A stretch of 45,959 nucleotides of DNA, taken from a virus. This document shows, piece after piece, positions 128 to 45,084 of the stretch; the first letter of the stretch is position 1, and each line of letters opens with the position of its first letter. Location of the stretch: the IMG/VR virus record IMGVR_UViG_3300025121_000006; one strand, written 5' to 3'. Under the pieces are notes generated by a model that saw nothing but the letters and a program-made list of their open reading frames with translations, ran no database searches and was not told the DNA's origin. The position numbers and the translations under genes are program-made.

Positions 128-139
128 GCGGATTTTTAA
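2..139 (+). CDS. C-terminal part of the hypothetical protein that starts at 45645 and crosses the circular junction
   Basis: The frame opened at 45645 is still open at the window end. The duplicated bases keep the phase, and the stop TAA at 137-139 lies inside a TTAACCACGAAGG element. Confidence 0.6.
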   Translation, partial: FIDSIPRIAGAVDAMALVKAEGVIAFAYEEPQQEDKETDLLDADF

Positions 140-224
140 CCACGAAGGGCACGAAGGGAAAAAAGATATGAACCACAGATTAACACAGATTTACACGGAT
201 TAAGAAATTAGAAATTAGAAATAA
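136..224 (+). repeat. junction element: A units, then B-like units (CACAGATT x2, CACGGATT), then GAAATTA heptamers x3
   Basis: TTAACCACGAAGGGCACGAAGGG; AACCACAGATTAACACAGATTTACACGGATTAAG; GAAATTAGAAATTAGAAATA. Confidence 0.9.
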
Positions 225-229
225 AGAAA

Positions 230-249
230 AGACGCAAAATGTTGCGTCT
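230..249 (+). other. perfect 8-bp hairpin upstream of the scaffold-like gene
   Basis: AGACGCAA-AATG-TTGCGTCT, with no U-tract. Confidence 0.5.
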
Positions 250-282
250 CTACGAACAATAAAAATTTGAAAGGATTCAAAA

Positions 283-1104
283 ATGCCATATCTGGATGAA
301 CAGGGACAGTTTACGGAGGATTTCAAGACGGCACTGCCGGAATTTATCGGCGAGGGCTACAAGGACGAACAGGGCAACACCACTAAGGTATTTGACGACG
401 TCAAGGATATCAGGGGCCTTGCTAAAAGTTTCTTCGATACCAAGCGAATGGTGGGTAAGAAGCTTGAGGGCGTTATCCAAAAGCCCGGCGAAAAGGCGAC
501 CGACCAGGAAAAGGCGGCCTACCGGGCACAACTGGCGGCGGAGATGGGAGCTCCTAAGGATGCCAAAGAATATAAGTTCTTTCGCGACCCCAATACCAAG
601 GATGGCCAGTACAGCCAGAAGGCCGAGGATTCGCTGCGAGCGATCGCCCATAAGCACGGAGTACCGGCAGCGTTCATGGAAGAGGCCAGCAAGACCTTAT
701 TCGAGGCACAGAGCGAGGAACTGACTAATTTAATGGCAAAGCAGGCCGACGACGCCCAAAAGGAGTTTGAGGCCGATTCGGCGGCGATAAAAAAAGACTG
801 GCTCGGCGACGCGATAAAGGTAAAACCGCGCCACGCCTTGAACGCGATGGCAGAGTTCATGACCAAGGAGAGTTTCGCCAAGCTGCAGGAGGCGAAAGTA
901 TTCGATACGCCCGACGACCTGGCTAAGTGGCGACAGCTGGGGATAAGCCCGGCGCAATTGCGGGTATGGGCCAATATCGGCGAGAAGATGAAATCGCCGG
1001 AATTCATACGCGGCAGTAACGCCGACGCCGGCGGCAAGGACAGCCCGAGAGCCAAGGCGATGAGGATGTATCCAAACAGCCCGGCTCTTTGGCCGAAAGA
1101 ATAA
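283..1104 (+). CDS. putative capsid scaffolding protein
   Basis: 273 aa, A/E/K-rich and helical-looking, no Cys. It lies upstream of the capsid gene, and its N-terminal part resembles podovirus scaffold proteins. Confidence 0.5.
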   Translation: MPYLDEQGQFTEDFKTALPEFIGEGYKDEQGNTTKVFDDVKDIRGLAKSFFDTKRMVGKKLEGVIQKPGEKATDQEKAAYRAQLAAEMGAPKDAKEYKFFRDPNTKDGQYSQKAEDSLRAIAHKHGVPAAFMEEASKTLFEAQSEELTNLMAKQADDAQKEFEADSAAIKKDWLGDAIKVKPRHALNAMAEFMTKESFAKLQEAKVFDTPDDLAKWRQLGISPAQLRVWANIGEKMKSPEFIRGSNADAGGKDSPRAKAMRMYPNSPALWPKE

Positions 1105-1133
1105 ACAGCCGTTTAACCACGAAGGACACGAAG
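1104..1133 (+). repeat. junction element: AACAGCC box + A units
   Basis: AACAGCCGTTTAACCACGAAGGACACGAAG followed directly by ATG. Confidence 0.9.
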
Positions 1134-1307
1134 ATGCCGATTATTAAACAAAGTAACGACAAAAAACCTAACATGGTTACAAAAAAACGCAAATATTATT
1201 GGGGAAAAGCCAGTAAGTTTTTCGTTTTTAGATGTTGGGTGAATCAATGTTGCATTGCGTTTCATTTCTGTGGGTATGAGTTTGCAGCGTGGAAGCGTAT
1301 TGTGTAA
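1134..1307 (+). CDS. small hypothetical protein (doubtful)
   Basis: The ATG directly follows an A-type element (GAAGGACACGAAG-ATG). The stretch is AT-rich and basic and could be non-coding. Confidence 0.25.
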   Translation: MPIIKQSNDKKPNMVTKKRKYYWGKASKFFVFRCWVNQCCIAFHFCGYEFAAWKRIV

Positions 1308-1335
1308 TCAGCGAAATCTGCGTAATCAGCGTTAA
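1305..1335 (-). repeat. junction element: C units, reverse orientation
   Basis: TAATCAGCGAAATCTGCGTAATCAGCGTTAA. Confidence 0.9.
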
Positions 1336-1364
1336 AAAAGGATTTGAAATAAGGAATTAAGAAA

Positions 1365-1607
1365 ATGGATATAAACAGTTTAAGGATCGATAAGCAGATA
1401 ACGGCGGCTGATATGCCAAATATCATCTTTTGTCTCTGCAAAGTGGTTCAGGATAAGGGCGGCAGGGTCGTTTTGCCGCGAGAGGCTATTAAGAACCTGC
1501 CCAAGGGCGCTGGCATCGAAATAGAGTACCTCCAGCAGGGCGATTGTTTCCGGATAACCGCGCACGGAACCAAGCCGATAAACCTGCGGATAGTGACGGG
1601 CAACTGA
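1365..1607 (+). CDS. hypothetical protein, possible AbrB/SpoVT-like fold
   Basis: 80 aa with an SD-like AAGGAA upstream. The 'GRVVLPREAIKNL..G..IEIEY' pattern is weakly AbrB-like. Confidence 0.4.
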   Translation: MDINSLRIDKQITAADMPNIIFCLCKVVQDKGGRVVLPREAIKNLPKGAGIEIEYLQQGDCFRITAHGTKPINLRIVTGN

Positions 1608-1615
1608 ACAGCGGG

Positions 1616-2876: not shown

Positions 2877-2945
2877 ACAGCCGTTTAACCACGAAGGACA
2901 CGAAGAAACACGAAGGAAAAAATTGGAAATTGAAAATTTAAAATA
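2876..2945 (+). repeat. junction element: AACAGCC + A units x3 + AT-rich heptamers
   Basis: AACAGCCGTTTAACCACGAAGGACACGAAGAAACACGAAGG, then GGAAATTGAAAATTTAAAAT. Confidence 0.9.
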
Positions 2946-3436: not shown

Positions 3437-3483
3437 AAAAAAATCAAAAATCAAAACTCAAAATGTAAAAATGAGGTATAAAA

Positions 3484-5936: not shown

Positions 5937-6004
5937 AACCGCGGATTTCGCGGATTACACGGATTGAAAAAACAATCAGCGAAATCTGCGTAATCAGCGG
6001 TTAA
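5937..6004 (+). repeat. junction element: B units, then C units (reverse)
   Basis: AACCGCGGATTTCGCGGATTACACGGATTG ... AATCAGCGAAATCTGCGTAATCAGCGGTTAA. Confidence 0.9.
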
Positions 6005-6657: not shown

Positions 6658-6724
6658 ACAGGAAGAACACGAAGAAAAGAAATAAACCGCGGATTACGCG
6701 GATTACGCGGATTACACGGATTAA
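6657..6724 (+). repeat. junction element: degenerate A + B units x4
   Basis: AACAGGAAGAACACGAAGAAAAG ... AACCGCGGATTACGCGGATTACGCGGATTACACGGATTAA. Confidence 0.9.
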
Positions 6725-6750: not shown

Positions 6751-7443
6751 ATGAAAAAGAAAACAGACGAGTTAAACGCTGATTACGCAGATTACAAAAA
6801 TAAATTTGTGAAAATATGTGGAAACCTGCGGTTTAAATTCTTGTTTCTTGTTTTTTGGCTACTGTTTCCTGCGGCGTTTGCCGTCGGGGCGGACGGCTAT
6901 CAGCTTGAGACGGTTCAGAAGGGGGCATGGCTGATATCGGAGGCTGATTCGAACGACACGGCTCTTGATGTCAATACGGCAAGCTGGTCGGTGTGCCAGG
7001 ATTGGCGGCCGGATATACCGGCGTGGGCGAACGGACTAAAAGTGATGTTCTACGCTCAATATGTGGTAGTTGATGAGGTTAATGACCTTAACGAGCCTAA
7101 TGACAGCACTTTCAGTTATCAGTTTTATGTGGCCGATTACGGCGGAAACGCGCAGATTGTCGCAAGCGGCGACGCTACCGTCGGGGCCATGCAGCTTTCG
7201 CACGACCCTGTAACGCTTACCGAATTGAATGACGGCGATGCTGCGTTTCGCTATTGCTGGGTCGATACGCTGGGGGCGATTACAACCGACTGGAAGGGGG
7301 GCGTGACAGCTCAAAATGACGCACTGACCAATGATTGCGCGGCCTTTATATTCGACCGGCAATCGGCGAAAAAGGCATGGTGTCGAATTTACAGCAGGTC
7401 AAACGCCAACCTGAAGATATATTGCATAGCTTACGGCTATTAA
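6751..7443 (+). CDS. hypothetical virion-module protein with signal-like N-terminus
   Basis: 230 aa. A C-type element is translated in frame (ELNADYADY), followed by FKFLFLVFWLLFPAAFA. A GTG at 6808 is an alternative start. Confidence 0.5.
   Translation: MKKKTDELNADYADYKNKFVKICGNLRFKFLFLVFWLLFPAAFAVGADGYQLETVQKGAWLISEADSNDTALDVNTASWSVCQDWRPDIPAWANGLKVMFYAQYVVVDEVNDLNEPNDSTFSYQFYVADYGGNAQIVASGDATVGAMQLSHDPVTLTELNDGDAAFRYCWVDTLGAITTDWKGGVTAQNDALTNDCAAFIFDRQSAKKAWCRIYSRSNANLKIYCIAYGY
6762..6795 (+). repeat. junction element inside the 5' end of a CDS: C units, forward
   Basis: AACAGACGAGTTAAACGCTGATTACGCAGATTAC, read in frame as ELNADYADY. Confidence 0.85.
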
Positions 7444-8272: not shown

Positions 8273-9392
8273 CCACGAAGGGCACGAAGTGACACGAAGG
8301 GGATTGCTTCGCTGCGCTCGCAATGACAATCAGCGGAATCTGCGTAATCAGCGGTTAAAAATAATTCTCTGTGTTCTCTGTGTTCTCTGTGTCATCTGCG
8401 GCTCTTGTCTTGGCGAAGTGACAAGCAGTACGGTCCAGAATTTCACGACAAATATTGACGGCTTCAATTACGAACTGGATTTTATAAAGATGTCCAGTCT
8501 TTCGGCTACCGCGCCTGTTGTCTACGACGGGGCGGGAGTATTTTCGCTCGATTACGATATCAACGATTTCTGGCTTAACGGCACGACTTTAGAAATAAAC
8601 GACGTCAATATCCACCACGGCAGTTTGTACGGGCTGGCCGCCGACGACCACACACAGTATCTATTAGCAGACGGGACAAGGGGATTATCGGGCAACTGGA
8701 ACGCGGGTGTGTTTGGTATAACAGCCAATTCCTTTACTATAGGGGCCGATACGCTTGCAACGAGCGAATGGGCTTATCTCGATGGGCAGGACCAAGCGGT
8801 AAAAAGCACAAGCATCCCGACTTTCGACGGCCTGACGTCTACCGCACCTTTAGTCGATAATTATGATACTGTTAACGGAAGCGACTGGCTGACTTGTAAA
8901 GACAATGGGACGACAAGTTTTAGGATACTGCATTATGGAACAACCCACGTTAAGTTATTGGCAACCGACAATTTATATTTTGAATGTGACACCGTCGTGT
9001 TTAATCCTGCCAATGGCATATTTTCTGTGCAGGCCGGAACTAATGGAATTTTTGAGAGCTATGGAAGGCCCTGTATTGTAAGAAGCAGAGCTGGAGCGTA
9101 TGCCCTTATCCTAAAAACAAACGATATTACCGCCATCACAATAGACGGCACTTCTCAAAATGTCGCCGTAAGCAACTATCTTAGGGTCGGTTCTGCCGTT
9201 GCCCCTACCGTACCTCTCGACGTTACCGGTGCAATCCTCGGTTCGACTACGATAGAGGCAGGAACAGGCTTTAAGTGCGGCGGAACTGCGGCGGTAGCTG
9301 ACGGTACTTATAATTTTGATGGTACGGCGGCAGGGACAGTATCAACGATGACTTTCAAGGGTGGTATTTGTACGGGAATAACAACAAGATGA
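8265..9392 (+). CDS. tail fibre protein
   Basis: 'HHGSLYGLAADDHTQYLLADGTRGLSGNWNAG' is a common phage tail-fibre motif. The ATG at 8265 overlaps the upstream stop. The first ~55 codons are encoded entirely by junction elements. Confidence 0.6.
   Translation: MINHEGHEVTRRGLLRCARNDNQRNLRNQRLKIILCVLCVLCVICGSCLGEVTSSTVQNFTTNIDGFNYELDFIKMSSLSATAPVVYDGAGVFSLDYDINDFWLNGTTLEINDVNIHHGSLYGLAADDHTQYLLADGTRGLSGNWNAGVFGITANSFTIGADTLATSEWAYLDGQDQAVKSTSIPTFDGLTSTAPLVDNYDTVNGSDWLTCKDNGTTSFRILHYGTTHVKLLATDNLYFECDTVVFNPANGIFSVQAGTNGIFESYGRPCIVRSRAGAYALILKTNDITAITIDGTSQNVAVSNYLRVGSAVAPTVPLDVTGAILGSTTIEAGTGFKCGGTAAVADGTYNFDGTAAGTVSTMTFKGGICTGITTR
8269..8391 (+). repeat. composite: A units x3 + palindromic unit + C (reverse) + TTCTCTGTG x3
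   Basis: TTAACCACGAAGGGCACGAAGTGACACGAAGGGG; GATTGCTTCGCTGCGCTCGCAATG; AATCAGCGGAATCTGCGTAATCAGCGGTTAA; TTCTCTGTG x3. Confidence 0.9.
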
Positions 9393-12007
9393 AAATGAGA
9401 AATAAGAAATTAGAAATTAAAAGCCTTCGTGGAACTTCGTGTTCTTCGTGGTTAAAATTCTTGTTTCTTGTGTCTTGTGTCTTGTTTCTTGCCGCCCCTG
9501 CGGCGGCTTATCGCCAGACGACAAATACGCTAAACGGGGGGGAACTATCGCCACTGCTCGAGGGCAGGAGCGATATTGAAAAGTATTACAGCGGATGCCG
9601 GACTCTTGAAAATTTCCTTGTTCTCTCGCACGGAGGCGTAACAAAAAGGCCAGGGACGGCCTATATTGCAACCGCCAAGACTGCGGGCGATACAGTCAGA
9701 TTGATACCTTTTGAGTATTCGACCGAACAGGCCTATATCCTCGAATTCGGCGATGAGTATATAAGGTTCTATAAAGATAGCGGCCAGATAACATCCGGCG
9801 GCAGCGCTTATGAGATAGTTTCACCTTACGATAAAAGCGATCTATTTGAATTGCAGTATATTCAGTCCGCCGATGTGATGTATATAGTCCATCCCGATTA
9901 TGCTCCGCGTCAGCTTACAAGGACGGGTCACACGGCCTGGACTATATCGGCGGTCGATTTCCAGCGTGGGCCGTTTCTGGCCGAGAATACGACCGATATC
10001 ACAATAACGCCGTCGGCGACGACCGGCACGATAACACTTACGGCAAGCGATGATATATTCGATGCCAATCACGTCGGGGCGCTGTGGCAGATAAATCATA
10101 CCATAGGGACTGAAAAGGCACTGCCGTACTGGTCGGGTACCGATACCGGAACGGAGGCCGGCCCGACGGTTCAACTGGGCCGCAGGTGGGAGCTTACCAC
10201 GCACGGGACATGGAACGGGGTATTGAAGCTGGAAAAAAGTTACGATGGTACAAACTGGACAGATGAATATATAGTATCGAGCGTAAACGACGATAACCGG
10301 CAGGCGCCGGGCATAGAGGAAAGAGACGACGCGGTGTACCGGCTGAATATGGAAAGCCACATATCCGGAACGATATACGTGCGGTTTTACGCCTTTAGCC
10401 ACGAGATACAGGGCGTTGTCCGCATAACGGCCGTCACAAGCGCAACAAGTGCAACGGCGACGGTAGTTAATACCCTTGGTGGTACGACGGCGACGGCCAG
10501 ATGGGCGGAAGGGGCGTTTAGCGAAGATGAAGGGTATCCGCGGGCTGTAGCGTTCTACGAAGAGCGGCTCGCCTTTGCGGGCACGAGGAACAGCCCGCAG
10601 ACTATATGGATGAGCCAGACGAACGATTGGCCGAACTTTTACGCAGGCGCCGAGGCCGATCAGGCGATAAGCTACACAATCGCAAGCGATAAGGTGAACG
10701 CGATATACTGGATGGCGGCGGCAAATTCGCTGCTATTGGGGACTTCGGGCGGGGAGTGGAAACTAAACGGCGGCAATAACGGAGAGGCTCTTAGCCCGTC
10801 GGTTCCGCCGGTATGCCGAAGGCAGTCGAGCTACGGAAGCGAATATCTCCAGCCGCAGCTTACCGAGAACGTCGTTTTGTACGTGCAGAGGCAGAGCAAG
10901 AAGATTCGGGAAATGGCCTATTCGTTCGAGCAGGATGGCTACGTCAGTCCTGATATGACCATACTTGCCGACCATATAACAGGCACAGGGATAACGCAGA
11001 CGGCGTTTTCCAAGACGCCCGACCCGATACTGTGGTGCGTTACGGGCGATGGATACCTGGCCGAGCTTACCTATAACAGGGAACAGAATGTCACCGCGTG
11101 GAGCCGGATAGTTACAGATGGCGACATTGAATCGGCTGCGGTAATACCCGGCGATGGCGAAGATGAGGTGTGGGTTTCGGTAAAGAGGACTATCGACGGC
11201 ACAGATTACCGGTATATTGAGCAGTTCAGTGCGAGAGATTTTGGCTCGGATCAGGCGGACGCGATATTAGTCGATTCAAGCCTGTCTTTCGACGGCGGCG
11301 ACAGTGTTACGATAACCGGCGTTACAAACGCAAATCCGGCGGTTGTCACGGCGGCAGGTCACGGCTTCGCCGATGGCGAGCAGATTCGGTTTTCAAGCGT
11401 CGGCGGAATGACGCAGTTAAATAATAAGGTCTTTACCGTCGATTCGCCGGGGTTAAATAGTTTCACCCTGTACGATAAGACAAACGCAGTCGCGATAAAT
11501 TCCAGTGCGTTTTCTACATATACAAGCGGTGGATCGTGCGAGCAGGTAGAGAATACATTTACGACGCTTAGCCATTTAGAGGGCCAAACGGTTCAGGTCG
11601 CAGCAGACGGGGGCTATTACGGCACAGAGACGGTTAGTTCCGGTACCGTGACACTTGCCGATTTTTACAATAAGGTTCATATCGGACTTGGCTACACGGC
11701 CAAATTACTGCCGCAGCGGCTTGAAGTGCCGGGCGGGAATCTTACGGGCAGGGAAAAGAGGATAACGAAACTTACAATGCGGTTTAATAAGAGCCTTAGC
11801 TGTCGGGCGGGGGTAAGCTGGACGGAATACGACAATATAGTGTTTCGCGATGCCGACGATCTGCTGGAGGCGGCAAGCCCGTTATACAGCGGCGATAAGG
11901 AAATAGACTTTGACGGAGACTGGGACACGCAGGGCGATATCTATATCTTAAACGAGCTGCCCGTGCCGTGTACGATACTATCGATTACGACGGAGTTTGA
12001 TTTATGA
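9389..12007 (+). CDS. tail tubular protein B / nozzle (T7 gp12-like)
   Basis: About 870 aa. 'TNTLNGGELSPLLEGRSD...GGVTKRPG' parallels T7 gp12 'IKNLKGGISQQPDILRYPD...EGLQKRPP'. An ATGA overlap couples it to the upstream gene. Confidence 0.6.
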   Translation: MKMRNKKLEIKSLRGTSCSSWLKFLFLVSCVLFLAAPAAAYRQTTNTLNGGELSPLLEGRSDIEKYYSGCRTLENFLVLSHGGVTKRPGTAYIATAKTAGDTVRLIPFEYSTEQAYILEFGDEYIRFYKDSGQITSGGSAYEIVSPYDKSDLFELQYIQSADVMYIVHPDYAPRQLTRTGHTAWTISAVDFQRGPFLAENTTDITITPSATTGTITLTASDDIFDANHVGALWQINHTIGTEKALPYWSGTDTGTEAGPTVQLGRRWELTTHGTWNGVLKLEKSYDGTNWTDEYIVSSVNDDNRQAPGIEERDDAVYRLNMESHISGTIYVRFYAFSHEIQGVVRITAVTSATSATATVVNTLGGTTATARWAEGAFSEDEGYPRAVAFYEERLAFAGTRNSPQTIWMSQTNDWPNFYAGAEADQAISYTIASDKVNAIYWMAAANSLLLGTSGGEWKLNGGNNGEALSPSVPPVCRRQSSYGSEYLQPQLTENVVLYVQRQSKKIREMAYSFEQDGYVSPDMTILADHITGTGITQTAFSKTPDPILWCVTGDGYLAELTYNREQNVTAWSRIVTDGDIESAAVIPGDGEDEVWVSVKRTIDGTDYRYIEQFSARDFGSDQADAILVDSSLSFDGGDSVTITGVTNANPAVVTAAGHGFADGEQIRFSSVGGMTQLNNKVFTVDSPGLNSFTLYDKTNAVAINSSAFSTYTSGGSCEQVENTFTTLSHLEGQTVQVAADGGYYGTETVSSGTVTLADFYNKVHIGLGYTAKLLPQRLEVPGGNLTGREKRITKLTMRFNKSLSCRAGVSWTEYDNIVFRDADDLLEAASPLYSGDKEIDFDGDWDTQGDIYILNELPVPCTILSITTEFDL
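9397..9491 (-). repeat. composite: heptamers + A units (reverse) + degenerate reverse A (CTTGTKTCTTG run)
   Basis: CCTTCGTGGAACTTCGTGTTCTTCGTGGTTAA is about 30 nt identical to 45016-45047. It is followed by TTCTTGTTTCTTGTGTCTTGTGTCTTGTTTCTTG. Confidence 0.9.
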
Positions 12008-12008
12008 G

Positions 12009-12048
12009 AACAGCCAATAGAAACGCAGATTACGCTGATTTATTAACC
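12009..12048 (+). repeat. junction element: AACAGCC + C units
   Basis: AACAGCCAATAGAAACGCAGATTACGCTGATTTATTAACC. Confidence 0.85.
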
Positions 12049-13771: not shown

Positions 13772-13887
13772 TTAACCACAAAAAACACGAAGAAAAAGAA
13801 ATTAACCGCGGATTTCGCGGATTACACGGATTAAGAAAATGAAAAAAAACAAAAAAATCAGCGGAATCTGCGTAATCAGCGGTTAAG
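13772..13887 (+). repeat. composite: A + B + C (reverse)
   Basis: TTAACCACAAAAAACACGAAG; TTAACCGCGGATTTCGCGGATTACACGGATTAAG; AATCAGCGGAATCTGCGTAATCAGCGGTTAAG. Confidence 0.9.
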
Positions 13888-14252: not shown

Positions 14253-14789
14253 ATGTTAAAGTTTAGAGAATTTACAGCCAAGGATGCAGAGCTGATCGCG
14301 GCAAACGCGGTCGATAGCGAGCTGCGCGGTAAAAGCGGCGAATGGGTCAAATACTGGTCTTTAGTTTGTGAAAATAAAGGGTTCGGATATACGGCGTTTT
14401 TAACCACGAAAAACACGGAAGAAAATAAAACAGCCGGGTTAAACGCTGATTCCGCAGATTACGCTGATGGAAAATCAGAGGCGGGAGATATTATCGGGGC
14501 GGCGGGGGTGACTTTTTCGGCCAATAGCTGCGGGACGGTGTGGGCGATATTTACGCAGCAGGTCCGCCGATACAGCAAAGAGACTCTGCGGAGTATGAGG
14601 ACTGTTCTTTATGATTTTATTGTGCCGGAATGCGGACTAAAAAAACTGCGGGCATTGTCGAGAGTTAATTTCACGGCGTCGCAGAGATTGCTGGAGGCGA
14701 TGGGGTTTGTTAAAAAGGGAAAAAGAGGCGATTATTATCTATATATAAAACAGTTTAACCACGAAGGACACGAAGATGCACGAAGATAA
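14253..14789 (+). CDS. GNAT-like acetyltransferase carrying an in-frame junction-element insertion
   Basis: The C-terminal 'KKLRALSRVNFTASQRLLEAMGFVKKG' is GNAT-like. Residues 'LTTKNTEENKTAGLNADSADYADG' are encoded by an A + AACAGCC + C composite element. Confidence 0.45.
   Translation: MLKFREFTAKDAELIAANAVDSELRGKSGEWVKYWSLVCENKGFGYTAFLTTKNTEENKTAGLNADSADYADGKSEAGDIIGAAGVTFSANSCGTVWAIFTQQVRRYSKETLRSMRTVLYDFIVPECGLKKLRALSRVNFTASQRLLEAMGFVKKGKRGDYYLYIKQFNHEGHEDARR
14400..14470 (+). repeat. composite A + AACAGCC + C embedded in frame in the GNAT-like CDS
   Basis: TTAACCACGAAAAACACGGAAGAAAATAAAACAGCCGGGTTAAACGCTGATTCCGCAGATTACGCTGATGG. Confidence 0.9.
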
Positions 14790-15360: not shown

Positions 15361-15473
15361 CCACGAAGGACACGAAGAGACACGAAGGAAACAGCCAATT
15401 TTAACGCTGATTACGCAGATTACGCTGATGAAAAAAAGTTTAGGGTTTAGGGTTTAGAAATTAGAGATTAAAG
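15357..15473 (+). repeat. full composite: A x3 + AACAGCC + C x3 + GTTTAGG/AATTAGA heptamers
   Basis: All module types occur in one 117-nt spacer, ending 3 nt before the ATG at 15477. Confidence 0.95.
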
Positions 15474-17138: not shown

Positions 17139-17166
17139 CCACGAAGGACACGAAGAAAGCACGAAG
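17135..17166 (+). repeat. junction element: A units x3
   Basis: TTAACCACGAAGGACACGAAGAAAGCACGAAG. Its TAA is the stop of the upstream gene. Confidence 0.9.
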
Positions 17167-17176
17167 AAATTAAAAA

Positions 17177-23578: not shown

Positions 23579-23645
23579 TGGAAAATTTGAAATTTGAAAA
23601 GGAGTTCAATATGCTTAACCACGAAAAGCACGAAGGGCACAAAAG
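23579..23645 (+). repeat. heptamers + SD + ATG + A units (translated)
   Basis: GGAAAATTTGAAATTTGAAAAGGAG...ATGCTTAACCACGAAAAGCACGAAGGGCACAAAAG. Confidence 0.9.
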
Positions 23646-25633: not shown

Positions 25634-25726
25634 AAAAAAAATTAAAAATAAAATATTAAAAATCAAAAATGAAAGGAGTCAAAAACAATGTTTAACCACG
25701 AAGGACACGAAGGGACACGAAAAGGG
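25634..25726 (+). repeat. A-rich heptamers + SD + ATG + A units x3 (translated)
   Basis: AAAAATTAAAAATAAAATATTAAAAATCAAAAATGAAAGGAG...ATGTTTAACCACGAAGGACACGAAGGGACACGAAAAGGG. Confidence 0.9.
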
Positions 25727-26155: not shown

Positions 26156-26217
26156 ACGGCCGGTTTAACCACGAAGGACACGAAGAAAAATTTAATCACG
26201 GATTTCACGGATGAACA
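26154..26217 (+). repeat. junction element: A units + B units
   Basis: AAACGGCCGGTTTAACCACGAAGGACACGAAG ... TTTAATCACGGATTTCACGGATGAACAC. Confidence 0.9.
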
Positions 26218-26245
26218 CTAATTAAGGCAAAAGGCAGGAAGCATT

Positions 26246-29001: not shown

Positions 29002-29372
29002 GCGGAACCACGAAGGGCACGAAGAGACACGAAGTTTGTCAATTTACAAAACAGCCGTTTAACTGTGGCGTATGTGAGGGAGCAAAAAACAAATTGTCGG
29101 CAGGGAAATTTCACATGTGCCAGAGTATCGACGGGCCATTGAGAAACTGGGGGAAAAAACAATGGAAAAATGCAACATCATACATGACAGGAGATAATGG
29201 TAAAAGGTTTACAAGTGATGAGTTGAAGGATGAATTTTTTAACATGCACAACAAAGGCTGGACGTGTATGCCTGTTGGGGAATGCGATAAGTTCTGTTTC
29301 AAAAAAGGATGCATGGGGCATAAAAAAGAATCTGCGGAATCAGCGAAATCCGCGGTTAAGGAGGATTGTTAA
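28998..29372 (+). CDS. Cys-rich hypothetical protein
   Basis: 124 aa, joined to the endolysin by an ATGA overlap. Both ends are encoded by junction elements (TTKGTKRHE ... ESAESAKSAV). Confidence 0.4.
   Translation: MSGTTKGTKRHEVCQFTKQPFNCGVCEGAKNKLSAGKFHMCQSIDGPLRNWGKKQWKNATSYMTGDNGKRFTSDELKDEFFNMHNKGWTCMPVGECDKFCFKKGCMGHKKESAESAKSAVKEDC
29005..29062 (+). repeat. A units x3 + AACAGCC-TTTAAC, translated in a different frame
   Basis: GAACCACGAAGGGCACGAAGAGACACGAAG ... AACAGCCGTTTAAC. Confidence 0.85.
29328..29360 (-). repeat. junction element: C/B hybrid, reverse
   Basis: GAATCTGCGGAATCAGCGAAATCCGCGGTTAAG, followed by GAGG (SD) and an ATG. Confidence 0.85.
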
Positions 29373-29546: not shown

Positions 29547-30073
29547 CTACTAAAGGGCATGTAATCGGATTTGCGATTGTTTTGGCTCTGTGGCTGGTTC
29601 TGTGCCTGACGGGGTGTTCATCCCCCCAGAAGGCGTTAAAGGACACTCCGGCTTATTTTAGGGCTAATATAGGCCAGTTCAAAGTAACGCTTAATCCACT
29701 GCTGGCAGGGTACGTTAAAAGCGGCGACGCCGAGGGCGTTATTTATATATCGCCATTGGCGACGGGGCGGGAGATAAGACATGAGGCGTTCCATAGCTTC
29801 GAGATCAGGGCTGGCTATAACAGGCAGGCCGAGTGGGGGCGGTTCTATAATAGTTTCCGTTGCGAGGGGGGTGGTGGTGAAAAGAAGTATATGGGCAAGC
29901 CGTTACTACTGGCACGGTTCGCTGTATGGATGCCGTCGAGGCTTTACGGGAAGGTCAATCACTTTGAGGACGCGGCGGAAAGTTTCTGCCGGGGCGATAG
30001 CGATGCGGTGACGAGATTTACCGAAGGAAAATTTAGCCACGGATTAACCCGGATTAACCCGGATGAAGAATAG
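29543..30073 (+). CDS. lipoprotein with HExxH motif (putative zinc metallopeptidase)
   Basis: The signal peptide plus lipobox is ...LVLCLTGC, and 'IRHEAFHSFE' contains HEAFH. The C-terminus is encoded by a B-type element. Confidence 0.45.
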   Translation: MTTKGHVIGFAIVLALWLVLCLTGCSSPQKALKDTPAYFRANIGQFKVTLNPLLAGYVKSGDAEGVIYISPLATGREIRHEAFHSFEIRAGYNRQAEWGRFYNSFRCEGGGGEKKYMGKPLLLARFAVWMPSRLYGKVNHFEDAAESFCRGDSDAVTRFTEGKFSHGLTRINPDEE

Positions 30074-30137
30074 CCGCAAAAAGGCACAAAAGACACAAAA
30101 AAAATCTGCGTAATCTGCGGTTAAGAAAGGGGCTGTT
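30032..30137. repeat. composite: B units, degenerate A, then inverted C + inverted AACAGCC box
   Basis: TTTAGCCACGGATTAACCCGGATTAACCCGGATG; GGCACAAAAGACACAAAA; AATCTGCGTAATCTGCGGTTAAG...GGCTGTT. Confidence 0.85.
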
Positions 30138-30552: not shown

Positions 30553-30649
30553 CAGCGGAACAGATGTGTTAAACGCTGATTACGCTGATTACGCAGATTG
30601 AAAATTGAAGAAAACTTCGCAGAACTTCGTGTTCTTCGTGGTGAAAAAA
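30551..30649. repeat. composite: C units (forward) + A units (reverse)
   Basis: GTTAAACGCTGATTACGCTGATTACGCAGATTG ... ACTTCGCAGAACTTCGTGTTCTTCGTGGTG. Confidence 0.9.
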
Positions 30650-32933: not shown

Positions 32934-32965
32934 TTTAGCCACAAAGGGCACGAAGAAGCACGAAA
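32934..32965 (+). repeat. junction element: A units x3 ending at an ATG
   Basis: TTTAGCCACAAAGGGCACGAAGAAGCACGAAA followed by ATG. Confidence 0.85.
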
Positions 32966-34702: not shown

Positions 34703-34759
34703 CCACGGATTTTCACGGATGAAAAATATTAACCACGAAGGACACGAAAGGGCACGAAG
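34699..34759 (+). repeat. junction element: B units + A units x3 ending at an ATG
   Basis: TTAACCACGGATTTTCACGGATG...ATTAACCACGAAGGACACGAAAGGGCACGAAG followed by ATG. Confidence 0.9.
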
Positions 34760-35113
34760 ATGAGAAATGGAAAATCACAAATGTTGCGGCCATGCCCTGT
34801 TGAGTTCGATGATAAAAAAACGCCGTGGTGGGCGGAGCCCAGACGCGATGAACTTATCGGCAGGGTTCGGCTGGCTTTTACGATTATTCACGGGGCGAAT
34901 GCCAAGATTGCGGATGAATTCAAAACCGAGGACCTGCGGGCAATAGGCGGCGACGCGGCGACGGTCAAGACAAACGCTATCGGTAAGATTCGCAATATGG
35001 CCGCGAGGCGGGGGTATCGGCGGATAATAATACACAAAATTTGGATGGAAACAGCCGTGTTAACCGCAGATTTCGCAGATTACGCTGAGTCAAGAAAGGC
35101 AGGTAAAAAATGA
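34760..35113 (+). CDS. hypothetical protein
   Basis: 117 aa. The ATG directly follows an A-type element, and the C-terminus is encoded by a C-type element. Confidence 0.45.
35049..35089 (+). repeat. AACAGCC + C units, in frame at the 3' end of a CDS
   Basis: AAACAGCCGTGTTAACCGCAGATTTCGCAGATTACGCTGAG. Confidence 0.9.
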
Positions 35114-35400
35114 GTTGGGGCGAACGAAGTTGTAAAACACCATGCAGGGTGGAAAAATGCACGTTTGAGACCTGCAATGTGGATTGCCCGGAATATCAGT
35201 GGGATGGCAATACGGAGCCGGATAGTAAACCATCGCCAAAGGTAACGGAAAAGCAATTTTATAAATCCAAGTACAAAGATACGAGATTTGTGCCGGCGTT
35301 AAAATCTCGAAGGATCGGCAGAAACGATTTGTGTCCCTGCGGTTCGGGGAGGAAATACAAAAAGTGTCACGGGGATTTTCAATCAGCGAAATCTGCGTAA
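35110..35400 (+). CDS. SEC-C motif (zinc-binding) protein
   Basis: The C-terminal '[14 protein letters not shown]' is the SecA-type SEC-C metal-binding motif. An ATGA overlap joins it to the upstream gene. Confidence 0.6.
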
Positions 35401-35413
35401 TCAGCGTTTAAGG
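35381..35413 (-). repeat. junction element: C units, reverse
   Basis: AATCAGCGAAATCTGCGTAATCAGCGTTTAAGG. It contains the stop of the upstream gene. Confidence 0.9.
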
Positions 35414-35420: not shown

Positions 35421-35675
35421 ATGGAAATCTTGGGTTTGGTTTCGGGATGTTTTGCGGTTGCCGGTGTGGTGTTGAATAACCGGCTAAACAGGGCATGTTT
35501 TATCCTCTGGCTGCTAAGTAACGCCGCAAGCGGCGTCATTCACGTAGAGACAGGCGTTTGGTCGCTTGCTCTGCGGGATGCGGTGTTTTTTGTGCTGGCG
35601 GCGGAAGGATGGTTTCTATGGTCGAAAAGAAATATTAACCACAAAGGGCACGAAGGGACACAAGAAGGATGGTAA
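35421..35675 (+). CDS. small 3-TM membrane protein (PnuC-like?)
   Basis: 84 aa with three hydrophobic segments and a 'GWFLWSKR' end, resembling short phage PnuC-like proteins. The similarity is weak. Confidence 0.35.
   Translation: MEILGLVSGCFAVAGVVLNNRLNRACFILWLLSNAASGVIHVETGVWSLALRDAVFFVLAAEGWFLWSKRNINHKGHEGTQEGW
35634..35668 (+). repeat. junction element: A units x3 ending at an ATG
   Basis: ATTAACCACAAAGGGCACGAAGGGACACAAGAAGG followed by ATG. Confidence 0.85.
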
Positions 35676-40100: not shown

Positions 40101-40131
40101 CCGCGGATTTCGCAGATTACACGGAGTTAAG
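40086..40131 (+). repeat. junction element: AACAGCC + B/C hybrid units
   Basis: GAACAGCCGGTGTAACCGCGGATTTCGCAGATTACACGGAGTTAAG. Confidence 0.9.
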
Positions 40132-40140: not shown

Positions 40141-41043
40141 ATGGATTTACCTGTAAATAAAATTATCTGCGGGGATTGCAAAACCATCCTGCAGGCGGTC
40201 CCTGATAATCTGGTGGATTTAGTTTTCTGTTCGCCGCCATACGAGGATGCAAGGACGTATGGTATTGATTTTAAGTTAACAGAGCAGAAATGGGTAGATT
40301 GGGCTGTCGAGAGATTTATAGAGTGCGTTAGAGTATGCAAAGGTGTTGTTTGTTGGGTGGTCGAAGGTAAAACAAGGGACTTTCGATGGTCGGCAACACC
40401 GGTATTATTGATGGCGGATTTACATAGAGCAGGAATACATTTGCGAAAACCGCCGATTTACAAACGATACGGAATTCCCGGCAGTGGCGGGCAAGAGTGG
40501 CTGCGTAATGATTATGAATTTATTGTTTGTGCAAGTCGTGGCAAATTGCCGTGGAGTGACAATACAGCAATGGGGCATCCGCCAAAATACGAAATGGGCG
40601 GCCGGTGCAGCAATAGAACAGCAGATGGGCGAAGGGCAAATGAACAGAGATACGCAGCGTTAGACGCCATGCGATTAACACCAAGTGAAACCAGCAGGCG
40701 AAACGGCGCAAAAGGTAACGGCGGTTATGCGAAACCAAAGATAGCAAATCCGGGCAATATAATTGATTGTGGAGCTGCTGGCGGCGGGAGAATGGGAAGT
40801 AAACTGGCCAGTGAGAACGAAGCACCTTTTCCGGAAGCACTTGTCGAATTTTTTGTTAGGTCTTTCTGTCCTGCATGCGGAATCGTACTCGATCCATTTT
40901 GTGGTTCAGGAACAACAGTAAGCGTCGCAAAACAGTGGGGAAGAAATTTTATCGGAATTGACATTAGGCAATCACAGGTCGATTTATCCTGCATGCGAAT
41001 AAGGGAAATAAAGGAACAGTATGGTTTGTTTGAATCTGCGTAA
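40141..41043 (+). CDS. beta-class DNA methyltransferase (N4-cytosine or N6-adenine)
   Basis: 'VDLVFCSPPYEDA' (motif IV, SPPY) lies N-terminal to 'VLDPFCGSGTTVSVA' (motif I). This permuted order defines beta-class amino-MTases. Confidence 0.8.
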   Translation: MDLPVNKIICGDCKTILQAVPDNLVDLVFCSPPYEDARTYGIDFKLTEQKWVDWAVERFIECVRVCKGVVCWVVEGKTRDFRWSATPVLLMADLHRAGIHLRKPPIYKRYGIPGSGGQEWLRNDYEFIVCASRGKLPWSDNTAMGHPPKYEMGGRCSNRTADGRRANEQRYAALDAMRLTPSETSRRNGAKGNGGYAKPKIANPGNIIDCGAAGGGRMGSKLASENEAPFPEALVEFFVRSFCPACGIVLDPFCGSGTTVSVAKQWGRNFIGIDIRQSQVDLSCMRIREIKEQYGLFESA

Positions 41044-41055
41044 TCAGCGGGTAAG
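41032..41055 (-). repeat. junction element: C units, reverse (short)
   Basis: GAATCTGCGTAATCAGCGGGTAAG. It contains the MTase stop codon. Confidence 0.8.
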
Positions 41056-41059: not shown

Positions 41060-41075
41060 CTTTTGTTAACAATTG
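41060..41075. promoter_or_regulatory. palindromic box CTTTTGTTAACAATTG, copy 2 (upstream of terS)
   Basis: 16 nt identical to 1616-1631. Confidence 0.5.
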
Positions 41076-41713: not shown

Positions 41714-41730
41714 CCACGAAGGACACGAAG
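41709..41730 (+). repeat. minimal junction element (A units) forming a complete 17-nt intercistronic spacer
   Basis: TTTAACCACGAAGGACACGAAG. Its TAA is the TerS stop, and the next ATG follows immediately. Confidence 0.95.
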
Positions 41731-41949
41731 ATGAAAGTAAATCAAATCAGCGTAACTTATGGAGAATTGCGAAGTACAGGGTATCCGGCGTTCAGCAACA
41801 AACGACACGAGGTGACAATCGGGGCTGTACTGTCCGATACTGATTCGCCGCAACTGGTCTATGAAAAATTACATGACAGGGCAAAGCATTTAGTAAAAAC
41901 GGCGTTTGGTGACAAGGATATAGAGGGGCAGCAGGAAATGCCGTTTTAA
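41731..41949 (+). CDS. hypothetical protein
   Basis: 72 aa. The ATG directly follows TTAACCACGAAGGACACGAAG, and the stop lies inside a C-type element. Confidence 0.5.
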   Translation: MKVNQISVTYGELRSTGYPAFSNKRHEVTIGAVLSDTDSPQLVYEKLHDRAKHLVKTAFGDKDIEGQQEMPF

Positions 41950-41972
41950 TCAGCGGAATCAGCGTTAAAAGG
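41947..41972 (-). repeat. junction element: C units, reverse
   Basis: TAATCAGCGGAATCAGCGTTAAAAGG. Confidence 0.85.
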
Positions 41973-43513: not shown

Positions 43514-43572
43514 GCTGTGGGCTTTGGGCTTTGGGTACTAAAGTCTATAGCCTAAAGGCCAGGGACTAAATT
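43513..43572 (+). repeat. heptamer run (GGGCTTT / ..CTA family)
   Basis: GGCTGTGGGCTTTGGGCTTTGGGTACTAAAGTCTATAGCCTAAAGGCCAGGGACTAAATT. Confidence 0.7.
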
Positions 43573-43761
43573 ATGAAATATATTGTCACATGTCCGAAAT
43601 GCAGAACCGATATCGGGGCGAAGATGCCCGATGGCTCGGTGGATAAGGCGATGTGCGGCAACTGCGGGCTTGTTTTCGATACCTCGCAGGTCAGCGGCCG
43701 GATACTGAAGGAACTGCCCGAGCGGGAGGAAGAGGAAATTGATTTATTGGCGATGGACTGA
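43573..43761 (+). CDS. zinc-ribbon protein
   Basis: The 'CPKC...CGNCG' pair, 62 aa. Confidence 0.5.
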   Translation: MKYIVTCPKCRTDIGAKMPDGSVDKAMCGNCGLVFDTSQVSGRILKELPEREEEEIDLLAMD

Positions 43762-43771
43762 AAAGAAAAAG

Positions 43772-43818
43772 AAACAGCCGTATTAAACGCTGATTTCGCA
43801 GATTACGCAGATTAAAGG
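43772..43818 (+). repeat. junction element: AACAGCC + C units
   Basis: AAACAGCCGTATTAAACGCTGATTTCGCAGATTACGCAGATTAAAGG. Confidence 0.9.
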
Positions 43819-44072
43819 AAAGTTAAAAATGAACAAAAGGCTTGAAAAGGATATTATCGGTGAAGTGTAGTAGCCGTAAATTTTATATGGAGAATGCGTA
43901 TGTTGTAAAGAACATACGAGAAAGTTCACTGGACTTTTTGGCGAATAGTTGCCCCATTGAGGCGGCCAGCCTACAGAACACGGACTTCTTGTGCGTTCCC
44001 GTTTTGAAATTTGTCGGTTTTGTAGTTAATGCCCTGCCGTAAGAGGTGGGGCAGAACTACCGAAAGTCAAGG

Positions 44073-44399
44073 ATGGCGAAAACAAAAAAACAATTCAACC
44101 GTGAGTATTACCTAAAATATCGGGATAGCATTTTGGCCACTCGAAAGTTAGACAGGGCAATAAACGGCCAGAAACAATACAGAACGGACAAGAAATATAA
44201 TTATGGAAATAGGTATAATACAAGGTATTACGCCAGCCGTGAGCGGTATAGACAATCGGAAAAATGCCGAGCGGCTACGGTAAAACGATTACAGCGTTGG
44301 ATAGACACTCACCCAGAAGCATCGGAAAAGACGCTGGAAAAAATGGAATACTATATCAGGGTAAACGAAAGAACCGTGTCGCTGGCAAGTGTTGAATAA
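44073..44399 (+). CDS. K/R/Y-rich hypothetical protein in an AT-rich island
   Basis: 108 aa from the ATG at 44073 (SD-like AAGGA). The ORF track begins at GTG 44046. Confidence 0.4.
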   Translation: MAKTKKQFNREYYLKYRDSILATRKLDRAINGQKQYRTDKKYNYGNRYNTRYYASRERYRQSEKCRAATVKRLQRWIDTHPEASEKTLEKMEYYIRVNERTVSLASVE

Positions 44400-44465
44400 A
44401 TCAGCGAAATCTGCGTAATCAGCGTTAAAAATGGATTTGAAATTTGAAATTTAATAGTTGAAAGG
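44399..44465. repeat. C units (reverse) + TTTGAAA heptamers
   Basis: AATCAGCGAAATCTGCGTAATCAGCGTTAAAA is identical to 1307-1338. It is followed by GGATTTGAAATTTGAAATTTAAT. Confidence 0.9.
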
Positions 44466-44474
44466 AAAAAAAGA

Positions 44475-44984
44475 ATGGCAAAGAACCAGAAGTCAGACAT
44501 TAGTAATCAGAAACCAGAGGATATCGGCACAGGTCAAGGTCCTGATACCGATGAACAACCGGTAGTGAACGAAAACGCGGCGGCGGATCTGGCAGCCGAG
44601 AACGCAGAGCTAAAAAAGAAGCTGGCGAAGGCTACGGCTGAAAAAGGGATACCGTCGGTCAATAAGACAGTGCAGGGCGAACAGCCCAGGATGGAGGAGA
44701 TTATGGGTAAGCAGTTCGCGCATGCGAAAATCAAAAAGACATCGGAGCTGACCAAAGAGGATATCGTCTCCATCGAACGCGAGATCCGACGGTATGTCAA
44801 AAGGGGCGGCATTGTCGCCGGTAAAGAGGTTAAAGGCGGTTACGTCAAGGGCCTGACCGCAGAGAAGAAGGCCAACGCCGATAGACTGCTGAAACTTATC
44901 GGCAGGGTCGATGACAAGGGCAATCCTATTGCAAAATGGGATGAATCTATCGACGTGCCGGGTATGAGCAACGCGCTGAAATAG
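44475..44984 (+). CDS. hypothetical protein
   Basis: 169 aa, SD AAAGGAAAAA, with an acidic N-terminus and a basic C-terminus. Confidence 0.5.
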   Translation: MAKNQKSDISNQKPEDIGTGQGPDTDEQPVVNENAAADLAAENAELKKKLAKATAEKGIPSVNKTVQGEQPRMEEIMGKQFAHAKIKKTSELTKEDIVSIEREIRRYVKRGGIVAGKEVKGGYVKGLTAEKKANADRLLKLIGRVDDKGNPIAKWDESIDVPGMSNALK

Positions 44985-45013
44985 GGAATAGGTTGTAGGC
45001 GATGGGCTTTAGT

Positions 45014-45084
45014 ACTTCGTGGAACTTCGTGTTCTTCGTGGTTAAAAATGGATTTGAAATTTGAAATTTAAAATTTGAAAAGGG
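45014..45084. repeat. A units (reverse) + TTTGAAA heptamers
   Basis: ACTTCGTGGAACTTCGTGTTCTTCGTGGTTAAAA, then GGATTTGAAATTTGAAATTTAAAATTTGAAAAGGG. Confidence 0.9.

Follow-up and report, generated by a model that had tools for sequence, protein, structure and literature searches.

Tandem-repeat arrays at the gene junctions of a groundwater phage as probable gene-less copies of an inverted-repeat element associated with GxxExxY nuclease genes

What are the short tandem-repeat arrays that occupy so many gene junctions of the viral genome IMGVR_UViG_3300025121_000006, and what kind of element do they belong to? This IMG/VR record of 45,959 nucleotides, here termed the window, comes from a groundwater metagenome and is the complete genome of a temperate, podovirus-like phage (unit length 45,832 bp, with a 127-nt terminal repeat), encoding capsid, portal, tail and terminase proteins, two Xer-like tyrosine recombinases and two DNA methyltransferases at a coding density of 93%. 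Its arrays, whose units an earlier note made from the sequence alone had sorted into families A, B and C, each combine a polar head with a few tandem units. What that note missed, because it is invisible without tools, is that such arrays are the terminal inverted repeats of genes for GxxExxY proteins, a family of Cas4-like nucleases. We conclude that the A and B/C arrays of the window are probably non-autonomous copies of a widespread GxxExxY-associated miniature inverted-repeat element, comparable to the hairpin-forming doublets (REPINs) of repetitive extragenic palindromic (REP) sequences or to miniature inverted-repeat transposable elements (MITEs).

The arrays were counted with a strict detector that requires at least two units of C[AG]CN[AG]A[GT] at a spacing of 8–11 nt. 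It reports 44 arrays in the window, 27 of them with at least three units and all with a period of 9–10 nt, against a mean of 1.6 and a maximum of five in 50 shuffles of the window, so the repeat elements seen by eye are real. The assembly artefact that had been raised as a concern is ruled out, since five independent assemblies (two from ENA, one from JGI and two from Logan) are 100% identical through the arrays, base for base. Tandem Repeats Finder (TRF) gives 82 rows for the window and nine and four for stretches of ∼22 kb from each of two relatives. A polar head, TTAA(C/A), opens 41 of the 44 arrays. Units greatly exceed chance expectation in number, with CACGAAG present 37 times forward and eight times reverse, CGCAGATT 12/11, CGCTGATTA 4/9, CGCGGATT 9/1 and CACGGATT 8/2, and the array sequences include TTAAC-CACGAAGG, CGCGGATTA and CGCTGATTA. 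Placement is intergenic for 23 arrays and within 75 nt of the end of a coding sequence (CDS) for another 15; the remaining six are ‘internal’, but three of these have no head and resemble chance matches.

Most of the earlier description withstands this census. A copy lies at, or a few bases from, 46 of its 47 coordinates; the one that fails is an A copy placed near 14400, where there is none (the array at 14444 is of type C). The spacer at 15357–15473 does carry A, AACAGCC, C, a heptamer repeat and a Shine–Dalgarno (SD) sequence, and 30102–30137 is indeed an inverted composite, with GGCTGTT at 30131. Overstated were the presence of arrays at almost every gene boundary, as they occupy ∼22 of the 33 spacers of at least 17 nt, or roughly 60% of junctions, with none in the tightly packed block at 36–40 kb; and the fixed module order (stop codon, AACAGCC, TTAAC, units, heptamers, SD), which is limited to a few spacers, AACAGCC standing beside ∼10 arrays, chiefly of type C. 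The three families reduce to two, for A is distinct while B and C form one. Fifteen B/C copies align without gaps, with 19 of 27 body columns invariant and the two types differing mainly at unit position 4; the order of unit variants is kept among copies, and two B/C pairs have identical left arms. Whole elements of ∼30 nt have thus been dispersed within the window.

The link to GxxExxY genes was found from both sides. Among loci anchored on arrays, one small protein enclosed by arrays with outward-facing heads (head-out) recurs in Flavobacterium (L175), Sumerlaeota (L227) and Planctomycetaceae (L179), in a common layout: head and array, start codon, open reading frame (ORF), stop codon, inverted array and head. 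This protein is GxxExxY (TIGR04256, 146 bits; PF13366 PDDEXK_3, 141 bits). The reverse test used 80 GxxExxY loci from metagenomes that were fetched by protein similarity alone, independently of any array pattern. The strict detector placed a forward array upstream of the gene in 48 of 77 loci and an inverted array downstream in 47 of 77, compared with 14 and 14 for the control orientations; with a relaxed detector the figures rose to 59 and 56 of 76. The two arms belong together: the dominant unit type is the same on left and right in 44 of 47 loci (19.8 for permuted partners, maximum 30), and the left arm aligns with the reverse-complemented right arm at a score of at least 18 in 49 of 76 loci, against none of 76 shuffled controls.

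The enclosure is also specific and tight. GxxExxY accounts for 38 of the 43 array-enclosed ORFs in the protein-fetched loci, all co-oriented with the left arm, and apart from it no RAYT-like gene (RAYT, REP-associated tyrosine transposase), transposase or other recurrent cargo was found between arrays. The start codon follows a unit by 0–4 nt in 14 loci and the stop codon precedes one by 0–4 nt in 18. Heads in these loci are TTAAC (21), TTTAC (16) and TTCAC (14), and the flanking unit types include CACGAAG and CACGGAT. Both array families of the window are represented, A-type arrays flanking GxxExxY in L175, L179, L227 and the viral contig L410, and B-type arrays nearly identical to those of the window flanking it in L302 and L308. 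We found no description of arrays flanking GxxExxY genes in the literature, nor anything by searching it with the array sequence, in keeping with the earlier remark that this is not a recognised phage element. Rfam covariance models gave no match at gathering score on the window, 18 array loci and 20 GxxExxY loci, apart from one tRNA.

Four of the loci (L279, L295, L296 and L300) are 82–85% identical over ∼460 nt, yet the 800-nt flanks of one copy have nothing in common with those of another; in orthologous pairs whose elements are about as similar, the flanks are 73–86% identical. The similarity among the four opens at G-TTTAC-C and closes at G-GTAAA-C, and because it is bounded by the heads, the head marks the terminus of a mobile unit. 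The gene together with its arrays is thus evidently mobile, judged by its occurrence in unrelated contexts.

GxxExxY proteins (∼125 aa, PF13366/TIGR04256) are a Cas4-like family of PD-(D/E)XK nucleases and are numerous, with 20,097 clusters at 50% identity (E ≤ 1e-3) or 6923 (E ≤ 1e-10). In 78 diverse members the D...ExK triad and the GxxExxY motif are at least 90% conserved. An AlphaFold model built from these sequences has a pLDDT of 95.3 and finds its best matches in Cas4 SSO0001 and nucleases of the lambda-exonuclease type, although no structural match reaches E ≤ 0.001, and no solved structure matched by sequence. By its conserved motifs and its model, the protein looks like an active nuclease. 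A published survey lists PF13366 as of ‘unknown’ function with ‘multiple transfers, mixed clades’ (PMC3424549). Many family representatives (P0211–P0213, P0215, P0216 and others) are ∼275 aa long with two GxxExxY domains; these could be true tandem fusions, or gene callers may have read through adjacent cassettes and translated the arrays.

Relatives of the phage lack arrays. A capsid-protein search of IMG/VR returned no close relatives; those used here were obtained through the portal protein (42–57% identity, same capsid-Bbp16 gene order). Under the strict detector they hold no array in 71 kb, against 44 in the window, and their spacers are compact with a plain SD. This marks the arrays as a gain of the lineage of the window.

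Beyond the phage, the exact A motif occurs in viral contigs without any protein in common with the window and in Acidobacteriota, Planctomycetota, Verrucomicrobiota/Kiritimatiellia/Lentisphaerae, Chloroflexota (including the complete genome of Herpetosiphon aurantiacus), Desulfobacterota, Binatia, Bacteroidota and some Proteobacteria. Arrays in other genomes have two or three units, rarely four, with a 9-nt period; all recurrent tandem units there fit C-R-C-R-R-A-K, CACAGAG being the second commonest, and heads are TTAAC or, in GC-richer genomes, TTCAC/TTTAC. Exact 17-mers of B and C match IMG/VR 49 and 33 times, about the chance level, and only L408 and, more weakly, L329 and L395 are array-rich contigs among these matches. 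Cultured phages and plasmids gave weak chance matches only. Among the roles that the earlier note had offered, host-derived dispersed repeats is the one that fits, as cellular genomes of many phyla carry the elements and the closest relatives of the phage do not.

The geometry of close pairs is polar. Head-out (‘+-’) pairs outnumber the opposite order (‘-+’) by 49 to 3 in viral contigs and by 69 to 13 in cellular genomes; in the window the median gap is 216 nt for ‘+-’ and 1123 nt for ‘-+’, with four close pairs of the former kind and none of the latter. A plain hairpin would be indifferent to the order of its arms, so a head-out bias of this strength indicates a terminal-inverted-repeat organisation. 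The sequences between the arms, or loops, mostly bear no resemblance to one another. In L102 and L053, two related phages with genes 81–90% identical, orthologous spacers measure 449 versus 43 nt and 509 versus 63 nt, and the differences are whole array blocks. Arms kept in both have drifted by transitions (CAC to CGC, GAAGG to AAAGG), which explains the unit ‘families’.

Several other genomes show further behaviour of such repeats. The viral contig L408 (IMGVR_UViG_3300015370_000084; 63% GC) carries seven head-out pairs of AT-rich B-type arrays with head TTATC and units CGCGGATTA; B-type elements have colonised this other, unrelated phage. In the GC-rich L102 (for example at 5973–6422 and 9333–9842) and L053, a second, unrelated palindromic repeat (..GACGTGGATGCCCGGGACAAGCCCGGGCACGGGG..) stands in spacers beside arrays, so that phages seem able to gather host-type intergenic repeats of several sorts. 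Positions 5312–5835 of L151, from a Bacteroidales metagenome-assembled genome, hold seven complete head-out A-type hairpins in head-to-tail tandem with a period of ∼85 nt, a satellite-like amplification of the whole element.

These observations combine as follows. An arm consists of a terminal head (TTAAC in the window; TTCAC or TTTAC in GC-richer genomes) and two to four tandem 8–10-nt units of the form C-R-C-N-R-A-K; the full-length form would be two inverted arms set tightly around a ∼125-aa GxxExxY gene, and gene-less copies would be single arms and head-out pairs. The arrays of the window have the architecture of GxxExxY-flanking repeats: TTNAC head, C-R-C-N-R-A-K units and the polar, head-out pairing of terminal inverted repeats, all of it absent from the relatives. 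None of them encloses a GxxExxY gene, and neither tblastn (E = 9) nor a Pfam scan of the array-flanked ORFs revealed such a gene in the window, so they are best read as non-autonomous copies. Most likely they would have entered the temperate phage lineage and multiplied there inside an element-rich host, either mobilised in trans by GxxExxY nuclease(s) of that host or spread by recombinational copying, and been kept only where tolerated, in spacers and in the first or last codons of genes. On this account the GxxExxY nuclease is presumably the mobilising enzyme and the host the probable source of the arrays.

Several points weigh against this explanation. We know of no PD-(D/E)XK protein of such size that transposes DNA alone. 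No target-site duplication was seen at the ends of L279, L295, L296 and L300, although TTAA is palindromic and could mask one at TTAAC heads; the flanks in TTCAC...GTGAA are inverted and therefore belong to the arm rather than to a target duplication. GxxExxY loci in Flavobacterium are syntenic and vertically inherited, and one array in Acidobacteriota has stayed where it was, with 83% identity, so the system is not simply a fast-moving transposon. With all five assemblies identical, no movement or polymorphism of arrays was seen in the window phage. Most pairs in the window are mixed (A or B on the left, C on the right), whereas native elements have matching arms, so many window arrays may be independent single arms. 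The strong bias of A and B arrays towards the direction of transcription (37:8 for A) is not predicted by neutral insertion and calls for selection or a strand-specific mechanism. Finally, counts of exact single-array matches in large collections, single A hits included, are near chance, and for this reason we place weight on multi-array loci, heads and geometry only.

The strongest competitor reverses the link between gene and arrays: array hairpins would pre-exist, GxxExxY would be a homing-type selfish gene that inserts in their loop (or the arrays would be the expression or regulatory flanks of the gene), and the arrays of the window would have spread by recombination or slippage rather than through the nuclease. 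PD-(D/E)XK homing endonucleases do exist (I-Ssp6803I). The gene lies always exactly between the arms with its start and stop codons abutting units, ∼97% of arrays in cellular loci have no adjoining gene (it is present in three of ∼120 loci), and some loci are stably inherited, all as this account would have it. Yet arms match within a locus and differ between loci (44 of 47), the unit common to unrelated contexts includes both arms up to the heads, as if gene and arms travelled together, and a mere hairpin target has no need of strong head-out polarity. We regard the reversed link as rather unlikely.

A second competitor assigns the arrays to the phage itself, as polar sites, resembling stoperators, at which a protein of phage or host would bind and block or organise transcription, or as modules that supply an SD for translation initiation or coupling, and here their position relative to genes has to be considered. 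Forward arrays begin at the upstream stop codon, and the TAA of the head is the stop codon of eight window genes; reverse arrays end 14–50 nt before the next start codon. At 1134, 14776, 34760 and 41731 an ATG directly follows a unit, which leaves GAAGG 8–9 nt upstream, and the same junction of unit and start codon is seen in native GxxExxY loci. Where an ATG with its SD comes immediately before an array, as it does in some cases, translation gives M-x-N-H-E-G-H-E... followed by a hydrophobic segment, and one array straddles a stop/start junction. The stop codons, the SD at correct spacing that A units can supply, and the co-orientation of A and B arrays with transcription all speak for a regulatory role, and the earlier suggestion of translation or coupling signals holds in this incidental sense only. 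It fails for B/C units, which contain no SD-like sequence, and for the placement of arrays before, on and after start codons and inside C-termini, a spread expected of tolerated insertions and not of signals. Moreover, the closest relatives express the same genes from plain SD spacers without arrays, and the presence of identical arrays in cellular genomes of many phyla makes a phage-encoded reader unlikely. A regulatory origin is accordingly quite improbable.

A promoter or terminator role was likewise rejected, since sequences resembling promoters or terminators occur at chance frequency and the real terminators stand apart from the arrays. Two B/C pairs form very stable hairpins (folding free energy −30 and −25 kcal/mol; z −5.8 and −4.7), and neither strand folds better than the other, so a role of the B/C hairpins in RNA only was rejected as well. 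With B and C forming one family, the proposed division in which A and B act on RNA and C on DNA is not supported either; head-out geometry explains the orientation pattern better. As far as we know them, CsrA sites, DnaA boxes, parS half-sites, sigma-54 or extracytoplasmic-function (ECF) promoters, RNase E sites and 16S complementarity each fit one unit type only or fail at key positions, and none explains head, polarity and spread across phyla. What the arrays contribute today (stop codons, SD-like tracts, N-terminal extensions, hairpins) looks secondary and incidental, and they are probably mostly neutral for the phage.

Replication slippage acting locally within AT-rich spacers, in the manner of Borg or cyanobacterial short tandemly repeated repetitive (STRR) sequences and with no common origin, deserves still less credence as the source of the A and B/C arrays. 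Short tandem repeats are in general excess in the window, among them ∼20 heptamer arrays whose units differ from one another; its relative L005 has a heptamer vocabulary of its own; and many structural variants lie at intergenic tandem repeats in Planctomycetota (PMC9426551). But 41 arrays have one head and one unit grammar, the order of unit variants is preserved among copies, and the same elements recur across phyla in polar pairs and beside GxxExxY genes. Slippage accounts for the heptamers and for changes in unit number, not for dispersal: it is contradicted for A and B/C and plausible for the heptamers. As heptamer units vary from array to array, local slippage rather than dispersed copying is the likely origin, and the AT-rich heptamers probably form a separate layer on top of the arrays.

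Least credible of all, to the point of being nearly negligible, are integron-like or Xer-type recombination sites that bound cassettes and are served by a phage tyrosine recombinase: head-out pairs do enclose small ORFs (1134–1307, 28998–29372, 41731–41949 and 43887–44399), the small and large terminase genes, directly overlapping in three relatives, are separated here by a 72-aa ORF, and the attC cores RYYYAAC/GTTRRRY are loosely similar to the outer TTAAC/GTTAA, but the two recombinases score only 77 and 45 bits against the integron-integrase cutoff of 265 (TIGR02249) and are generic Xer-like enzymes, most arrays are single arms, the head TTCAC of GC-rich genomes is no attC core, and a methyltransferase gene enclosed by arrays is already present in array-free relatives, so that the suggestion of linkers for cassette exchange is not supported either.

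Of the interpretation given in the earlier note, then, the exclusion of CRISPR, origin iterons and REP hairpins holds and the reading as host-derived repeats fits, while the RNA/DNA division and the cassette linkers are not supported. CRISPR does not apply because the units are 9–10 nt long and directly tandem, in arrays at 44 dispersed sites; nor are these the iterons of a single origin or classical REP hairpins. Among the closest known parallels to the probable GxxExxY-associated element is the REP/REPIN-RAYT system, including TIRtron/TIRYT (PMC3116915, PMC3733652). Both have short intergenic repeats, single or in inverted, hairpin-forming doublets, with lineage-specific variants; many gene-less copies accompany a gene flanked by inverted repeats; and that gene is often single-copy and vertically inherited. 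The differences are substantial. RAYT is a transposase of the HUH/Y1 type, whereas the array-flanked gene encodes a Cas4-like PD-(D/E)XK protein of PF13366. A REP unit is an imperfect palindrome of 20–40 nt with GTAG or CGTC, whereas the arms here are not self-complementary, consist of a polar head and tandem 8–10-nt units and have no such tag. REPs are species-specific, the present unit grammar recurs across many phyla, and, unlike REP/REPIN, it has massively colonised a phage genome.

MITEs likewise have terminal inverted repeats round a short non-coding core, a non-autonomous and a gene-carrying form, and presence or absence between related genomes; unlike MITEs, the elements described here have no detected target-site duplication, their loop varies from copy to copy, single arms abound and the parent element encodes no known transposase. 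Stoperators of Cluster A mycobacteriophages (PMC9283540, PMC6550527) resemble the arrays as dozens of short asymmetric sites scattered over a temperate phage genome, at gene boundaries, often near stops and mostly oriented with transcription, but they are single 13–14-bp sites, bound by the phage's own repressor and limited to one phage cluster, whereas the arrays are tandem, fall into several families and occur in cellular genomes across many phyla but not in the closest relatives. STRR and Borg repeats both crowd intergenic regions and gene ends with tandem repeats and are a good analogue of the heptamers of the window; for neither are inverted arms around a dedicated gene known. The STRR heptamers of Mazel et al. 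1990 reportedly have different unit sequences and are restricted to cyanobacteria. Each Borg repeat is of local origin and is not common to several genomes (PMC9879509).

More tentatively, GxxExxY with its inverted arms may represent a new class of prokaryotic mobile (or domesticated-mobile) element, possible but somewhat short of an even chance in our estimate, that uses a minimal Cas4-like nuclease in place of a DDE, HUH, serine or tyrosine enzyme, has REPIN-like gene-less derivatives in the intergenic DNA of at least 10 bacterial phyla and can overrun phage genomes. If so, a family of ∼20,000 clusters now annotated only as ‘GxxExxY protein’ would acquire a function, and if it is indeed the nuclease that moves the elements, mobile DNA would gain a further mechanistic class. 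The tight, polar and co-varying association of gene and repeats points to the substrate, a TTNAC head with tandem units. Much of the intergenic sequence rich in tandem repeats, and of the structural variation, that has been reported in Planctomycetota and was seen here in Acidobacteriota, Chloroflexota and others may be owed to such elements. For phages, host-type miniature repeats could colonise a temperate genome at more than half of its gene junctions, rewriting stops, 5′ leaders and N-termini, which bears on how phage genomes gain new intergenic sequence. Gene calling is affected where arrays are translated as spurious or real N-terminal extensions, and the repeat vocabulary could serve as a host signature for host prediction.

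Table 1. Repeat arrays in the window (positions in window coordinates; dG, folding free energy)
Feature	Position	Strand	Remark
A array, 2 units (CACGAAGGG x2), head TTTAAC	141..158	+	TAA 137-139 in head is stop of gene crossing terminal repeat
B array, 3 units (CACAGATTA / CACAGATTT / CACGGATTA)	174..202	+	near-same array flanks GxxExxY in L302, L308
AT-rich heptamer repeat, AGAAATT x2.9	203..222	+	TRF; representative of ∼20 heptamer arrays whose units differ from each other
A array, 2 units, head TTTAAC	1118..1135	+	ATG directly after last unit
C array, 3 units	1305..1331	-	head on 3′ side of + strand (..CAGCGTTAA)
A array, 3 units	2890..2917	+	TAA-ACAGCC-GTTTAAC precedes
Heptamer array	2919-2944		
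Heptamer array	3439-3463		
B array, 3 units	5940..5966	+	left arm of head-out pair; hairpin 5937-6005, dG -30 kcal/mol, z -5.8
C array, 3 units	5973..5999	-	right arm of pair with 5940..5966
B array, 4 units (CGCGGATTA x3 + CACGGATTA)	6688..6723	+	TRF score 65
C array, 2 units	6777..6794	+	26 nt into CDS starting 6751
A array, 3 units	8274..8301	+	head TAA is stop of 7457-8272; 9 nt into CDS from 8265 (MINHEGHE...)
C array, 3 units	8327..8353	-	right arm of mixed A/C head-out pair
Array, CACAGAGAA x3 + CGCAGATGA	8365..8400	-	+ strand reads TTCTCTGTG x3; compare CACAGAG, second commonest unit elsewhere
Heptamer array	9393-9419		
A array, 3 units, reverse	9423..9450	-	ends ..CGTGGTTAA
Heptamer array	9458-9491		
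C array, 2 units	12024..12041	+	AACAGCC precedes
B array, 3 units	13807..13833	+	left arm of second B/C head-out pair; identical to 5940 arm; dG -25.1, z -4.7
C array, 3 units	13855..13881	-	right arm of pair with 13807..13833
C array, 3 units	14444..14470	+	AACAGCC precedes; within predicted ORF 14253-14789
A array, 3 units	14760..14787	+	spans end of one ORF and ATG of next (14776)
A array, 3 units	15362..15389	+	head TAA is stop of 14776-15360
C array, 3 units	15405..15431	+	AACAGCC precedes
Heptamer array	15438-15457		
A array, 3 units	17140..17168	+	head TAA is stop of 15477-17138; next ATG 10 nt downstream
Heptamer array	23583-23599		
Degenerate A array (CACGAAAAG / CACGAAGGG / CACAAAAG)	23620..23645	+	just after ATG 23611 (MLNHEKHEGHK...)
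Heptamer array	23676-23704		
Heptamer array	25637-25674		
A array, 2-3 units	25697..25721	+	9 nt after SD-preceded ATG 25688 (MFNHEGHEG...)
A array, 2 units, head TTTAAC	26170..26187	+	
B array, 3 units (CACGGATTT / CACGGATGAA / CACTAATTA)	26197..26224	+	
A array, 3 units	29009..29036	+	junction of 28282-29001 and 28998-29372
B/C array, 3 units, reverse	29328..29354	-	
B-variant array (CACGGATTAA / CCCGGATTAA / CCCGGAT)	30038..30064	+	
C array, 2 units, reverse	30102..30119	-	then GTTAAG and GGCTGTT (inverted AACAGCC)
C array, 3 units	30574..30600	+	
A array, 2 units, reverse	30623..30640	-	head TTTCAC
Heptamer array	32443-32467		
A array (CACAAAGGG / CACGAAGAAG / CACGAAA)	32940..32965	+	runs into ATG 32966
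B array, 2 units	34704..34722	+	head TAA is stop of 33866-34702
A array, 3 units, middle one degenerate	34734..34759	+	ATG 34760 directly after
C array, 3 units	35065..35091	+	AACAGCC at 35050 precedes
C array, 3 units, reverse	35380..35406	-	
A array, 2 units (CACAAAGGG / CACGAAGGG)	35640..35657	+	
B/C array, 3 units	40102..40128	+	head TAA is stop of 39711-40100; AACAGCC at 40087
C array, 2 units, reverse	41032..41049	-	overlaps methyltransferase stop codon
A array, 2 units	41715..41732	+	head TAA is small terminase stop; ATG of 72-aa ORF directly after last unit
C array, 2 units, reverse	41947..41964	-	14 nt before large terminase ATG
C array, 3 units	43788..43814	+	AACAGCC at 43773 precedes
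C array, 3 units, reverse	44398..44424	-	
Heptamer array	44435-44463		
A array, 3 units, reverse	45013..45040	-	ends ..CGTGGTTAA
Heptamer array	45052-45080		

Repeat-filled spacers of another kind occur in L005 (IMGVR_UViG_3300009788_000048), a distant relative of the phage, whose spacers are filled with the heptamers AGTTTTT and CTAAAAA in both orientations, often right after terminator hairpins, so that the style recurs with different units.

The 108-aa gene whose stop lies in the first A array of the window (Table 1) runs from 45645–45959 into 1–139 and so crosses the 127-nt terminal repeat. No tRNA gene was found in the window. Seven proteins of the virion module (starting at 3484, 6751, 7457, 8265, 9389, 23611 and 25688) have signal-peptide-like N-termini, with a charged N-region, a hydrophobic core and an AxA-type site, which is unusual for tail proteins. 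Several of the hydrophobic cores are encoded by T/G-rich tandem repeats: TTCTCTGTG x3 at 8365, TTCTTGT x4.9 at 9458 and GTTGCTT x4 at 23676. Within the HTH_36 gene at 33866–34702, a 25-nt repeat (ACGACAAAAGTGTCGTTACCCCCTC) is present in 5.2 copies at 34172–34298 (TRF score 142); it looks like origin iterons lying within a replication-initiator gene, as in lambda O.

Ahead of the major capsid gene, its long 5′ leader contains a conserved structured element (1690–1815) that is common to four array-free relatives (L244, 7668–7790; L245, 8905–9045; L246, 15225–15365; L247, 15520–15650). RNAalifold predicts a multi-stem fold with compensatory changes in 11 of 26 pairs, there is no Rfam match, and we consider the element a candidate cis-regulatory RNA of the capsid gene. 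A 16-nt sequence, CTTTTGTTAACAATTG, with the palindromic core TTGTTAACAA, occurs twice, upstream of this capsid leader (∼1616–1631) and upstream of the small terminase gene (∼41060–41075), both times in a long spacer, and may be an operator or promoter element.

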